A stretch of DNA of 64,000 nucleotides. Source: an uncultured bacterium (GTDB taxonomy: Bacteria > Verrucomicrobiota > Verrucomicrobiia > CAIQCK01). The notes beneath the pieces were generated by a model that saw only the letters and a program-made list of their open reading frames with translations, made no database searches and was not told the origin of the DNA. The translations under genes and the position numbers were made by a program. The stretch is taken from positions 3,819 through 67,818 of the forward strand of contig CAIQCK010000103.1 of the NCBI GenBank assembly GCA_903870275.1, read 5' to 3'. Positions 50,748 through 64,000 of this stretch are shown in pieces; the stretch's first letter is position 1; each line of letters opens with the position of its first letter.

Positions 50748-53222
50748 TCACTTCAACGACCAGGCTTCGAGTCGTCTGGCACCGGTATAGAGAATCTGCC
50801 CGTTCGGCGCAAACGCCAGGGCGATCCCCGGCCCGACCGCATTCACCCGGTTGAACTGAATCTCCACCAGCAACTCGCCGGTACCGATGCGAAACACTCC
50901 AATCCGGCCTTTGTCCGTATTCAAAGGCGCCCCGACGATGGCCAGCCAGCGGCCATCGGGTGAGAAGACCAGCGAGCACGCCCGGTCCGCCACCGGGTAG
51001 GCAAAGCCTTGCTGGAGCCTGCCCGTCGCCACATCCCACAGCCGAGTTCCGTCCCCTGCCGTGGCCGTGGCAAGGCAGCGGCCATCGGACGAAAAAGCCA
51101 GTCCGCTTACTTGGCCGGCATGTTCGTCAAACTGCCGCAATAGCTTGCCCGTGGCGGTGTCAAACAGTCTTATCGTTTTCGTTGAGACCGAGCCGCCGCC
51201 CGCGGCCAGCAGACTGCCGTCAGGCGACACCGCGACGACGCTCTTCACGCCGCTGTCGCCCTTGTGCTGCCACAAAGCGCGCCCGCTCCCGATATCAAAA
51301 CAGGCGATGTCGTTGAAACCGGCATAACCCAGGCGGAGCGCGGCGCGATCAAACGCAAAAGGACCAAGGCCAATGCCGCTGCTGGGCCTGCCTTTCAGTT
51401 CGATCTCCGAAACCAACTTCCGCTCGGCGACATCCCACTCACTTAACCACCCCTGTTGGTGAACTAGCACCACCTTATGTCCGGTATCGTGGAACGCCGT
51501 CCCCAGACACCAAGACCTGGGCTCGCGCGGAACCTGCCACACAGAGTTCCCCGATTTCGCCTCCCAGATTTCGACCGTTCCGTTGGTGAGCGTTGCCAAC
51601 AACTGGCCGTCGGGCGAGAGAATGAGATGCGACGGGTTGACGAAGAGCGGTGTGGCATAGACAGGTTCGGTGAGGATTTGCCTGGGCAGAGGCGACGGCT
51701 TGGGCGCTGGCTGTTCGGCCAGGTCATATTCATTGCGGAGCAAGTTCCGCCATTGGGCCAGCACCGTCTTCTGGTCGGCTGAACTCCGAGGCTGGGCGTC
51801 GTAGATACTCCGCACGCTGACGAGCGGTTCAGGCCGGCCGGCGTTCGAAATCTCCAGCATCTCTTTGAGTGTGTGCCAGTCGGTCAACTCGAACCGGGGA
51901 TGCTTCATTAACGCGATGAGCAATTCCCTCGTGTCGGGGCGCGCAGCCACCCGCACTTCCTGCAAGAATATTTCCGGCTGGTGGAAAGGATCTCTTGCCG
52001 TGACGAGTGCCTTATAGAACCAATCGGTGAGAAAATCCTTCTCCGCGGCGCCACAAACCCGCCACAAACCGCCGGTCAAATAGCCTGCGGCGCCGACATA
52101 ATCCCTTGTTTCGTGTTTCAGCGCCGTCCGCAGGATGTCGCCGGCGCGGGCGGGTTGCAGCGCCGCCGCGCCGATGGACCATGCCGGGTTGACGCCGTGA
52201 TAATCACGTTCCGCATCCTCGCAGGTGAGCAGCGCGCCGGCATCCTCCGGTCGCAGCAATTGGGCGGCATGACGAAGGATGAAATTGGCGATTCTCACAA
52301 AGTTAGGGTTCTTTTTGTTTTCCATCCGCAGGTCTGGATCGTCCGTCACCGGCTTGCGTTGGAGAAATCGCAACAGCGCTTCCGGCCCCAGTTCGCAGGC
52401 CGTGGCCAGCAGTTCCCGGTCTGACGCCAAACAATGTTCCGCCATGTATCCCTCGTTCCAACCTTCGGGGCATAAAACAAAAAGCCGTGTCCATGCGCGC
52501 TCCCTTGGAGGCAGTGCGTCCATCTCCGTCAAGACCCGCTTGATGTCCGATTGGTATTCCGGCTGAATCGGACTTGTTTCGCGCGTGGCGCGGTTCATTT
52601 TGACTGCGAACCAACCCGCCGAATACTGGCGGCCTTCATATTTCTTCCAGTATTTCTTGAAGATTTCCGCCGTCACCCGCGTCTCCCGTTCATCCGAAAC
52701 TCCCCAAAACTTGAGCATGGCTTGAGCCACGTGATCCACCGTCTGCGGACTCTCTAACTCGTCCACGGGACGCGGGCCTCCCATGCTGCTCATGAGTGCG
52801 CTGTTCATGAATTCGTGGAGGTCCGGGAACGTGGGAGCCTCATCGTCCACGAGCGATGCGATCAGCGGCAAATCCCGTCCATCTTCGCGCTCAAAAAGCG
52901 CGCCCAACGCCAGCGTTCGCATCTTCGGGTTGGGATGTTCGAGCAGTGCCGCCAAACTCTCGCGGTTGCCACTCAACGCGCGAAGCTCGCGCGCCAGACG
53001 ATCCTGCTGCGCCGCCAGCCGGTCATTATCCCACAGCCGCAACTGCCGGTTATAAATGAGGGTGGTTCGCGCGAAGTGACTGTAGGTCTGCGCCATCCGT
53101 TCCAACTGGATCTGAACCTGATTGCCGGTGGCGTCGGCCGCTGACAAGGCCGTAGCCGCCAGAAGCCATGCTGCAAACGTGCCGATGCGAGAGAGGGACC
53201 GGTGTTTCAGTTTGCGGAACAT
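50748..53222 (-). CDS. Secreted protein with N-terminal alpha-helical region and C-terminal WD40 beta-propeller
   Basis: Signal peptide MFRKLKHRSLSRIGTFAAWLLAATALSAA. The C-terminal roughly 350 aa has repeated WD-like blades (LVSVRS..., GHKVVLVHQQGWLSEWD, LATATAGDGTRLWD ...). 824 aa. Confidence 0.8.
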   Translation of the reverse strand: MFRKLKHRSLSRIGTFAAWLLAATALSAADATGNQVQIQLERMAQTYSHFARTTLIYNRQLRLWDNDRLAAQQDRLARELRALSGNRESLAALLEHPNPKMRTLALGALFEREDGRDLPLIASLVDDEAPTFPDLHEFMNSALMSSMGGPRPVDELESPQTVDHVAQAMLKFWGVSDERETRVTAEIFKKYWKKYEGRQYSAGWFAVKMNRATRETSPIQPEYQSDIKRVLTEMDALPPRERAWTRLFVLCPEGWNEGYMAEHCLASDRELLATACELGPEALLRFLQRKPVTDDPDLRMENKKNPNFVRIANFILRHAAQLLRPEDAGALLTCEDAERDYHGVNPAWSIGAAALQPARAGDILRTALKHETRDYVGAAGYLTGGLWRVCGAAEKDFLTDWFYKALVTARDPFHQPEIFLQEVRVAARPDTRELLIALMKHPRFELTDWHTLKEMLEISNAGRPEPLVSVRSIYDAQPRSSADQKTVLAQWRNLLRNEYDLAEQPAPKPSPLPRQILTEPVYATPLFVNPSHLILSPDGQLLATLTNGTVEIWEAKSGNSVWQVPREPRSWCLGTAFHDTGHKVVLVHQQGWLSEWDVAERKLVSEIELKGRPSSGIGLGPFAFDRAALRLGYAGFNDIACFDIGSGRALWQHKGDSGVKSVVAVSPDGSLLAAGGGSVSTKTIRLFDTATGKLLRQFDEHAGQVSGLAFSSDGRCLATATAGDGTRLWDVATGRLQQGFAYPVADRACSLVFSPDGRWLAIVGAPLNTDKGRIGVFRIGTGELLVEIQFNRVNAVGPGIALAFAPNGQILYTGARRLEAWSLK

Positions 53223-53230
53223 GGGATGCC

Positions 53231-63609: not shown

Positions 63610-63653
63610 GTCACTGTCCTGACGTGGAAACAGGGGTTGGTTACAAAGTTTTT

Positions 63654-64000
63654 TTAGCTTCCCAAGGCGGCAAACAAGACGCCCATCTCGGTCTCGACCT
63701 GACCGGGATCTCGCAGCGTGCCGGCAACCTCCGACCTCACCAACTGGCGGAACCGTTTCTTCATGCGATGCACCGCGACCTTCAGCGCGACAGGGTTCAG
63801 TCCGCAGCCAGCCGCCATCGCCGTCTGATCGCCATGTGCCGCATCGCCGGTAAGCCACGGCTTGATCTGCTCGAAGAAAGCCCCGCGCCCTTCCGATGCG
63901 CACTCCCGCTGCAACGCCTCCAAAGCGCGAGCCAGCACGGTTAGTGCCCATTGCCGGTCAAAGGCCGCGTCGGGAGTCAACGCCTTCGGGTCTGCCACCG
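63654..64000 (-). CDS. ECF (sigma-70 family) sigma factor, C-terminal part (5' end lies beyond the window)
   Basis: The C-terminal 114 aa include a region-4-type HTH (LNPVALKVAVHRMKKRFRQLVRSEV). It ends 44 nt upstream of the kinase start codon on the same strand. The N-terminus is off-window. Confidence 0.6.
   Translation of the reverse strand, partial: VADPKALTPDAAFDRQWALTVLARALEALQRECASEGRGAFFEQIKPWLTGDAAHGDQTAMAAGCGLNPVALKVAVHRMKKRFRQLVRSEVAGTLRDPGQVETEMGVLFAALGS

Follow-up and report, generated by a model that had tools for sequence, protein, structure and literature searches.

A sigma factor and receptor kinase pair conserved in Verrucomicrobiota, with a mosaic ectodomain and lineage-specific HEAT and WD40 neighbours

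Introduction

Sigma factors of the extracytoplasmic function (ECF) type that are encoded beside Ser/Thr kinases generally have no anti-sigma factor and are thought to be controlled by phosphorylation (PMC7826278, PMC8999054, PMC13147305). Activation of a sigma factor by phosphorylation has been proven for two pairs of group ECF43, EcfP/PknT of Vibrio parahaemolyticus and EcfK/PknS of Xanthomonas citri (PMC8999054, PMC13147305), and EcfK has additional phosphosites in the linker between the sigma2 and sigma4 domains. The kinases of group ECF62 are encoded at position +1, cross the membrane once and carry an N-terminal zinc finger (supplement of 10.1101/2019.12.11.873521), and the formylglycine-generating enzyme (FGE)-sulfatase and DUF1080 domains are common periplasmic domains of kinases from the Planctomycetes-Verrucomicrobia-Chlamydiae (PVC) superphylum (PMC11032199). 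Here we analyse a locus on the minus strand, positions 50748-64000, of a 64,000-nt stretch of contig CAIQCK010000103.1 from an uncultured member of the Verrucomicrobiota; this whole stretch is called the window. The locus encodes a putative sigma factor, a receptor Ser/Thr kinase, a HEAT-repeat protein and two WD40-repeat proteins (WD40-1 and WD40-2), which a sequence-only reading had proposed to form one five-gene surveillance system. The functional unit is, with good confidence, smaller: a conserved, probably autoregulated two-gene module of sigma factor and single-pass Hanks-type kinase that is typical of Verrucomicrobiota.

The sigma-kinase pair is the conserved unit

The locus consists of four complete open reading frames (ORFs) and one that is truncated by the end of the window, all running in the same direction. 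Gaps between neighbouring ORFs are 8, 62, 177 and 44 nt from the WD40-2 side to the sigma side, exactly as the sequence-only reading had described them. The same locus is present on about a dozen metagenome contigs, and contig L001 supplies the complete sigma gene. The features of the sigma-kinase part are:

63654-64000, minus strand: 3' part of the sigma gene, last 114 codons and stop; the gene runs past the window
63618-63644, minus strand: promoter motif GTAACC-N15-CGTCAGG, second copy, in the 44-nt spacer between sigma and kinase genes
57370-63609, minus strand: receptor Ser/Thr kinase gene, 2079 aa, single-pass
63520-63579, minus strand: C4 zinc ribbon at the kinase N-terminus, residues 11-30, CPKCGAVLPVASTAGLCPRC
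62620-63417, minus strand: Hanks-type kinase domain, residues ~65-330 (PF00069, E=2.6e-50; motifs read from the translation)
62509-62580, minus strand: transmembrane helix, kinase residues 344-367 (Kyte-Doolittle scan, peak 2.34)

In species-representative genomes, a profile built on 30 sigma orthologues found 289 loci, of which the best 80 were analysed by searching their six-frame ORFs with every domain of the five window proteins. These 80 loci are almost all from Verrucomicrobiota, and some genomes hold two or three copies. Seventy-six are informative, having at least 250 nt of sequence downstream of the sigma gene, and in 75 of these a Hanks-type kinase domain starts ~47-90 nt after sigma on the same strand, a pairing far more conserved than the sequence-only reading had assumed. 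Across the 80 loci, sigma orthologues are 60-83% identical and the partner kinase domains 43-86% identical. Partner kinases have ORFs of 370 to 2186 aa, and the sensors therefore vary: the FGE or lectin-like module recurs in a few, and most match in the kinase domain only.

The HEAT, WD40-1 and WD40-2 genes stand beside the sigma-kinase pair in none of the 80 loci. The only WD40 match there is an unrelated kinase-WD40 fusion, 7 kb off, in L082. The two closest relatives illustrate this division. In GCA_964524715.1, with sigma 83% and kinase domain 79% identical and a gap that is also 44 nt, the kinase reaches no more than 1108 aa, and convergent genes for TauE and FGE come next. GCA_026397915.1 has a sigma that is 82% identical, a kinase of 1383 aa in the gene call (which is N-terminally truncated) and then an HTH gene. 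Both keep sigma and kinase and differ in ectodomain and downstream genes. The HEAT, WD40-1 and WD40-2 genes thus lie outside the conserved module and are lineage-specific neighbours.

Two copies of a sharply positioned promoter motif

Analysis of k-mer enrichment over the 260 nt upstream of sigma yielded a bipartite, sharply positioned motif, GTAACC(T/A)TTC...CCAA(C/A)ACGTCAGGCA, with the short form GTAAC-N15-CGTCAGG, from which a position weight matrix (PWM) was built. By its sequence, GTAAC-N15-CGTCAGG is a typical ECF-style promoter, with AAC as the predicted -35 and CGTC as the predicted -10 element. The heptamer CGTCAGG occurs in 49 of 79 sigma upstream regions where 2 are expected, and 57 of 78 loci have a PWM score of 12 bits or more there. 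The spacer between sigma and kinase, 44-50 nt long, is nearly invariant and contains a second copy of the motif, ending 11 nt before the kinase ATG; this two-site placement recurs in dozens of loci. Throughout the fetched loci (~1.1 Mb), the exact pattern is confined to the region upstream of sigma and to this spacer, apart from one copy in L070.

In the organism under study, the upstream copy lies outside the window, at L001:501-527, and scores 35.8 bits. The spacer copy at 63618-63644 (minus strand) is the only exact match in the 64-kb window, against 0.15 expected, and the only PWM match of at least 5 bits; shuffled windows gave no score of 0 or above. Neither the PWM nor the exact pattern finds a sigma-type promoter before HEAT, WD40-1 or WD40-2. 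This arrangement suggests that sigma would positively autoregulate its own gene and that of the kinase.

The additional copy in L070 (4318-4344) directly follows the kinase gene and precedes the sequence ATGAGCGAG..., which looks like a duplicate of the kinase 5' end and may be what is left of a tandem duplication.

Downstream of the sigma promoter -10 element, at L001:~533-541 and at the equivalent site in most of L009-L088, a conserved GTGGCATGA or ATGGCATGA reads as a mini-ORF of start, Ala and stop codons. It shares the reading frame of sigma, lies ~20 nt ahead of the sigma start codon and may act as a leader element with a regulatory role. After the second promoter comes a similar GGCATGA, whose ATG is the one that starts the kinase. 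A sigma54-type reading of the conserved TGGCATGAT in the sigma leader was rejected on inspection, the spacing being unfit for GG-N10-GC.

A probable divergent ECF-type sigma factor

The 114 codons of the sigma gene inside the window match no hidden Markov model (HMM), and the ECF assignment of the sequence-only reading gains its HMM and fold support, which is weak, from the full gene on L001. There the gene call has 222 aa, and orthologues have 250-253 aa; an in-frame ATG 30 codons upstream of the call restores the conserved N-terminus ...FLTTRWTRV..., an FRTTRWT-type motif, for a full protein of ~252 aa. Among the candidates examined, more than 5,400 relatives were found at E<=1e-3, and the best 120 are 70-100% identical and annotated at source as ECF-subfamily sigma-70 factors. 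The Pfam family PF07638 (Sigma70_ECF) matches the orthologue P0030 with 21.2 bits, just past the cut-off of 21.1, and the 222-aa call of this organism with 16.8 bits. TIGR02937 aligns over the full length of sigma (E=3e-6), below its cut-off of 42.9 bits. An AlphaFold2 (AF2) model has a mean predicted local distance difference test (pLDDT) score of 60.7 overall and 72-90 in the sigma4-like half, and 15 of the 18 top Foldseek matches of this model in the PDB are ECF sigma factors, with E-values of 0.05-1.7. Aligning the family profile with sigma factors of the PDB and with E. coli RpoE (an approximate RpoE sequence) gave no usable alignment. The HMM and fold support is weak but consistent, the fold part coming from a model of moderate confidence and backing the assignment without settling it. 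The protein upstream of the kinase is accepted as a probable divergent ECF-type sigma factor, and what decides this is the conserved sigma-kinase unit and the zinc ribbon of the kinase.

The position of sigma2.2 that is central to comparison with ECF43 reads A68-A69-R70-E71, without Ser or Thr, as placed by pattern and the AF2 helix at H66-82, with alignment by inspection. Six Ser/Thr positions are invariant in 113 aligned sigma sequences: T24, T25 and T28, which belong to the TTRWT motif, S37, S98 and T233. In the same alignment, the sigma2-sigma4 linker has S128 in 99% and S/T147 in 94% of the sequences. T24/T25/T28, S128 and S/T147 are accordingly candidate phospho-acceptors, as judged from conservation.

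A distant paralogous pair is encoded at L108/L111:2159-5303, with a sigma-like protein 39% identical to sigma and a kinase 58% identical in the kinase domain; its order is reversed, the kinase lying upstream of the sigma-like gene.

The kinase domain and its zinc ribbon

The mechanical kinase ORF spans 57370-63951, and the Met at codon 115, within MSEPSSATNACPKCG, is the start on which gene callers and orthologues agree. The resulting protein, 2079 aa long, has identical copies on 10 contigs. Pfam places the Pkinase domain at residues 65-285, the hydropathy scan finds the helix at 344-367 as the single transmembrane segment, and the sequence-only description of a single-pass kinase of ~2080 aa is thereby borne out. 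The catalytic motifs (G-loop, VALK, HRD, DFG and APE) are all intact as read from the translation.

Ahead of the kinase domain, the window protein carries the ribbon CPKCG-x12-CPRC. The corresponding N-terminal motif CPxCG-x11-12-CPRCLMAEAM is present in 73 of 75 sigma-linked kinases and absent from all full-length non-linked kinases checked, in which the kinase domain starts directly at this point; these ribbon-free proteins include FGE-containing kinases from the genomes of the same relatives. Since it is found only in sigma-linked kinases, the zinc ribbon is a hallmark of sigma-coupled kinases and a candidate docking element.

The activation loop (residues ~212-245, window 62880-62980) holds a Ser/Thr-rich insertion of ~20 residues, GRSTDISVCESNDARAGVPTSRSEPGGT, which is shorter in the closest orthologue.

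The ectodomain is a mosaic

Beyond the membrane, the kinase continues for ~1,700 aa, divided as follows:

61585-62472, minus strand: ectodomain module, residues 380-675, without Pfam family, GC 0.52
59785-61584, minus strand: two ConA-like/DUF1080-related modules, residues 676-870 and 1081-1275, with a middle module, 871-1080, between them
59077-59703, minus strand: FGE-sulfatase-fold domain, residues 1303-1511, non-catalytic (PF03781, E=4.9e-39)
58510-59064, minus strand: two BamE-like small domains, residues 1516-1700 (PF04355, E=0.0096, below cut-off)
57373-58509, minus strand: C-terminal HEAT-like helical domain, residues 1701-2079, with relatives near the HEAT_2 cut-off

The full architecture occurs in only one cluster of proteins, identical to the window protein, and all other matches cover 11-36% of the query. 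Module 380-675, which has no Pfam family, shares 63% identity with a part of P0004, which is apparently secreted and has two FGE domains and Lon_C; the sequence-only reading called it a beta-helix, and its only match in that direction is to pentapeptide repeats at E=0.92. The two internal repeats of ~195 aa (676-870 and 1081-1275) are homologous to P0002 and align with a region of P0009 that overlaps its match to PF06439 (DUF1080/3-keto-disaccharide hydrolase, ConA-like), so that the two lectin-like modules proposed earlier are supported indirectly, through a homologue. The middle module, 871-1080, has a weak jacalin-like match (E=0.038).

The FGE/SUMF1-like domain of the sequence-only reading is clear from its Pfam match. 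Against the PDB, its best match is TvpA of T. denticola (2y3c, E=1e-30), and true FGEs follow at E ~1e-18. Alignment to the FGEs of T. curvata and S. coelicolor places R and L where GGS[FY]LCHxSYC has its catalytic, copper-binding cysteines. A catalytic FGE is ruled out, both cysteines being missing.

For the BamE-like segment, the match to PF04355 covers 18 residues with 16.1 bits, against a cut-off of 23.2 bits; a relative found with the C-terminal query, P0275, reaches the cut-off at 23.2 bits, the overlap of that match with the BamE-like module being unplaced. The module recurs in P0268, P0269 and P0273. An exhaustive search with residues 1516-2079 returned 541 relatives. Of four more distant relatives that were scanned, three lie just above the HEAT_2 cut-off and the fourth is below it, and both standalone and HEAT-fused versions of the C-terminal module exist.

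Base composition also changes along the gene. The segment 61000-62472 (kinase residues 380-870) has a GC content of 0.515 and a third-position GC content (GC3) of ~0.60; the kinase domain has 0.63 and 0.73, and sigma has 0.65 and 0.76. This drop suggests that modules 380-870 may be recent acquisitions. Judged by sequence, the ~1,700-aa ectodomain is a lineage-specific mosaic of shuffled modules.

The same modules occur as separate genes at L136:4558-13386 (GCA_026397915.1), where a lectin-like protein (218 aa), an FGE-fold protein (300 aa), a protein of two BamE-like domains with a helical domain (585 aa) and a second BamE-like protein (543 aa) are encoded within 9 kb, with no HEAT gene nearby. 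In P0004 and P0010, the FGE fold, the 380-675 module and the lectin-like module occur in proteins that appear to be secreted, having signal-like N-termini by eye, and that end with a Lon protease C-terminal (S16) domain, which is unexpected as a partner of such modules.

The HEAT and WD40 genes

The three remaining genes of the locus are:

55720-57192, minus strand: HEAT gene, PBS-lyase-type repeats, 490 aa (Pfam HEAT_2/HEAT_PBS)
53231-55657, minus strand: WD40-1 gene, 808 aa (Pfam WD40; 786 aa with the start used by some gene callers)
50748-53222, minus strand: WD40-2 gene, 824 aa (Pfam WD40)

Pfam confirms the repeats that the sequence-only reading had assigned to all three. Its claim that the three proteins are secreted draws only on hydropathy or on reading by eye: a hydropathy scan finds N-terminal hydrophobic segments in the HEAT protein and in WD40-1 and flags none in WD40-2, whose N-terminus is signal-peptide-like by eye only. 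WD40-1 opens with a signal- or anchor-like segment, continues into a WD40 propeller region and ends in a helical C-terminal tail of ~120 aa. In WD40-2, the signal-peptide-like N-terminus is followed by a 530-aa alpha-solenoid without Pfam family and a C-terminal WD40 propeller; AF2 models the N-domain (pLDDT 88.3) as an all-alpha solenoid of the ARM/HEAT-like kind, for which the structural matches are generic only.

The WD40-2 family comprises ~45 full-length orthologues, 45-57% identical, and ~35 relatives that consist of the N-terminal domain alone, which has no Pfam family. Their neighbours vary over the 47 loci that carry WD40-2 relatives, none of which has a HEAT gene nearby or an adjacent sigma-kinase pair. 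L108/L111 comes nearest: there, 4.7 kb separate the 39%-identical sigma-like gene and its kinase from a WD40-2 homologue, which is encoded on the opposite strand. A single genome (L093/L094) has a WD40-1 orthologue, 43-57% identical, directly before the WD40-2 orthologue, again with a gap of 8 nt, and this pair stands without sigma, kinase pair or HEAT.

A convergent gene for a 597-aa kinase adjoins the WD40 pair of L093 (13667-15460, minus strand); its N-terminal Cys-rich ribbon is of another type (CANPSCG...CPQCG), the L093 locus yielded no sigma homologue, and the juxtaposition may be coincidence.

Among the three neighbours, the HEAT protein alone might be a true accessory that binds the BamE-like/HEAT-like C-terminus of the kinase, the WD40 genes forming an independent operon that lies here by chance. 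This reading is possible and tentative, and of the alternatives it fares best. Its chief support is P0269 (951 aa), whose first ~400 residues are 68% identical to, and collinear with, the window HEAT protein, and which continues through a Big_2 domain into a remainder 64% identical to the kinase C-terminal module. Since orthologues of both HEAT and the kinase C-terminal module are fused in P0269, as in a Rosetta-stone protein, an interaction of HEAT with the ectodomain is plausible, and the HEAT protein may bind the C-terminal module. P0273, in which two BamE-like domains are joined directly to HEAT_PBS repeats, and the WD40 pair kept on its own in L093 point the same way. The P0269 fusion, however, is a single example on one 4-kb contig, HEAT_PBS repeats are promiscuous, and P0268, a standalone orthologue of the C-terminal module (67% identical), is encoded in L136 without a HEAT gene nearby.

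A working model and its competitors

In the mechanism proposed for the two-gene module, the kinase ectodomain would sense an extracytoplasmic cue, and the cytoplasmic kinase would act on sigma, most likely by phosphorylation, as in ECF43 pairs. Phosphorylation of sigma by its cognate kinase is thus a predicted step, by analogy with those pairs. The conserved N-terminal C4 zinc ribbon would probably dock sigma, and active sigma would read GTAACC-N15-CGTC promoters before its own gene and that of the kinase, giving positive feedback. In this lineage, the kinase ectodomain would have grown to ~1,700 aa by adding ConA/DUF1080-like, non-catalytic FGE, BamE-like and HEAT-like modules.

Several observations weigh against this account. 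The evidence for a sigma factor is individually weak, lying below the NCBIfam cut-offs, with an AF2 model of moderate confidence, and neither the sigma sequence nor its family profile found a sigma factor among solved structures. As sigma2.2 reads AARE, without Ser or Thr, any phospho-acceptor must differ from that of ECF43. Conservation of the spacer motif may be partly translational, because the motif overlaps the likely ribosome-binding AGGA of the kinase gene. Finally, the 177-nt gap between kinase and HEAT contains no terminator, promoter or structured RNA (fold z-score 0.11, no Rfam match), so that read-through into HEAT-WD40-WD40 is a bare possibility; in the whole region, 21 terminator-like sites were found against 16.6 expected, none of them in this gap.

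A more ambitious reading would make the family a distinct Verrucomicrobiota class of kinase-ECF systems, in which the ribbon docks sigma, phosphorylation falls on the TTRWT motif or the linker, the twin sigma-dependent promoters act as a feed-forward switch, and, in this organism, the accreted BamE/HEAT-like C-terminal module of the kinase recruits the secreted HEAT protein and perhaps the WD40 pair. Taken as a whole, including the switch, this combination is unlikely. If true, it would describe a HEAT-assisted multi-protein extracytoplasmic sensor with phospho-regulation unlike that of ECF43.

Equally doubtful is the idea that the kinase serves as the anti-sigma factor, its ribbon holding sigma at the membrane until a signal releases it, in place of phospho-activation. 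The restriction of the ribbon to sigma-linked kinases would fit such a role, as would the lack of a separate anti-sigma gene between sigma and kinase and, in the alignment, of the ECF43-type phospho-acceptor in sigma2.2. The C4 ribbon that the sequence-only reading had likened to an anti-sigma domain is indeed present, but it has no HxxxCxxC motif of the ZAS type, and the stretch ahead of the kinase domain is only ~45 residues long, where a helical anti-sigma domain takes ~90. On both grounds the ribbon is ruled out as a ZAS domain, and Pfam finds neither zf-HC2 nor RskA in the window proteins. The catalytic motifs are, moreover, fully conserved across all partners, whose kinase domains are 43-86% identical, which argues for catalysis as the selected function.

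The five-gene operon of the sequence-only reading, in which HEAT and the two WD40 proteins would form a periplasmic scaffold that docks on the kinase ectodomain and controls sigma through the kinase, is improbable. Co-directional genes, short gaps and the unpunctuated 177-nt gap speak for it, the N-terminal segments would put HEAT, WD40-1 and WD40-2 plausibly in the compartment of the ectodomain, and the fusions P0269 and P0273 can be read in its favour. The comparative record is against it, with no trace of the arrangement in the 80 sigma loci or the 47 loci of WD40-2 relatives, unrelated downstream genes in the two closest relatives, no sigma-type promoter before HEAT and a WD40 pair that stands elsewhere without sigma, kinase or HEAT. 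The lack of synteny that the sequence-only reading itself had named as counting against its proposal is thus what was found, since HEAT and WD40 never accompany the sigma-kinase pair. In addition, chance adjacency of repeat proteins is unsurprising because the window is rich in signalling and repeat proteins, such as an ankyrin-repeat protein and PAS kinases.

An anti-phage or other defence (surveillance) system of the kinase with HEAT and WD40 partners is highly improbable and was ruled out, since the PADLOC matches (PD-T4-6, mad6 and HEAT-ARM_XIII) cover only the generic kinase domain or generic HEAT repeats and lack their partner genes, WD40-2 and sigma have no PADLOC match, the kinase is of the membrane receptor type with a dedicated sigma partner, and no nuclease, NTPase or other effector is present.

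Surroundings of the locus

Many signalling and repeat proteins are encoded around the cluster, in window segments 27200-29605, 33267-43649 and 43866-50591. They include an 801-aa ankyrin-repeat protein, two large multi-PAS histidine kinases (1029 and 1542 aa) and a PAS/HisKA_3 kinase with a LuxR-type response regulator. A gene for a 2241-aa protein with a PATR autotransporter repeat is convergent on WD40-2. On the other side, past the end of the window, L001:3-368 holds part of a tyrosine recombinase/integrase gene, a C-terminal fragment ~280 nt upstream of sigma. Contigs of several samples share one end point ~650 nt before sigma, which points to an element at that site that is repeated or mobile.

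Significance

Sigma factors controlled by Ser/Thr kinases are recently established and thinly studied, with only two pairs characterised biochemically. The present locus stands for a very large and unusually conserved Verrucomicrobiota family, with more than 5,400 proteins and the 289 loci in species-representative genomes. Its testable features are the sigma-specific zinc ribbon of the kinase, the invariant threonines outside sigma2.2 and the sharply defined twin promoter, which is usable for finding the regulon. In this family, extracytoplasmic sensor modules are freely shuffled, and the one cytoplasmic signalling core to which they are coupled stays conserved. The five-gene complex does not hold up, and in this respect the outcome mainly corrects an over-reading.

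Comparison with known systems

Members of the kinase-linked ECF groups (ECF43/59/61/62/217/283) are recognised by a Hanks kinase in the immediate neighbourhood of the sigma gene, as found here in 75 of the 76 informative loci; no kinase-linked ECF group in the 2021 classification lists Verrucomicrobia. The closest in architecture is ECF62, the ECFSTK group of Jogler 2012 from Planctomycetes, described in the supplementary text of Casas-Pastor 2021. Like the family described here, it belongs to the PVC superphylum, encodes no anti-sigma factor and has at +1 a kinase that crosses the membrane once and bears a zinc finger at its N-terminus; regulation by phosphorylation of sigma has been proposed. 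ECF62, however, is listed as 100% planctomycetal, has no conserved promoter motif, and its kinases are mostly fused to WD40 repeats, whereas the present family is from Verrucomicrobiota and combines a conserved twin promoter and variable ectodomains with an invariant TTRWT motif in sigma, as far as a comparison by description goes.

ECF43 shares with this family a sigma factor that Pfam sees only as PF07638, here right at the cut-off, a single-pass Hanks kinase at +1 and the lack of an anti-sigma factor. It differs in being restricted to Proteobacteria, in the Ser/Thr residues (QTTA) that replace DAED in sigma2.2, where AARE stands here, in the tetratricopeptide-repeat ectodomains of its kinases, for which no zinc ribbon is reported, and in its promoter, GTC-Xn-CAG. 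Membership of ECF43 is ruled out by the sigma2.2 hallmark, AARE having no Ser/Thr in place of QTTA.

The receptor kinases of PVC bacteria with FGE and DUF1080 domains (PMC11032199) are likewise single-pass, their Pkinase domain lying in the cytoplasm and their FGE-sulfatase and DUF1080/ConA-like domains in the periplasm. The present kinase differs from them in stringing together six or seven types of module along 1,700 aa, in having BamE-like and HEAT-like modules as well, and in its link to a dedicated sigma factor. Its FGE domain most closely matches, in structure-based sequence comparison, the non-catalytic FGE folds of TvpA (2y3c), PvdO (5hha) and PorK/GldK, and TvpA too has non-Cys residues at the positions aligned to the FGE cysteines; here, unlike in TvpA-type proteins, the fold is embedded in a kinase ectodomain. 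ZAS domains, as in RsrA and ChrR, share the N-terminal Cys-based zinc site and a gene next to an ECF sigma gene, whereas here a C4 ribbon of 20 residues leads into a kinase domain, with neither HxxxCxxC nor a helical domain of ~90 aa. Taken together, the sigma-kinase family is probably an unclassified sister group of the kinase-linked ECFs, nearest to ECF62 by architecture, as compared by description, and to ECF43 by Pfam.

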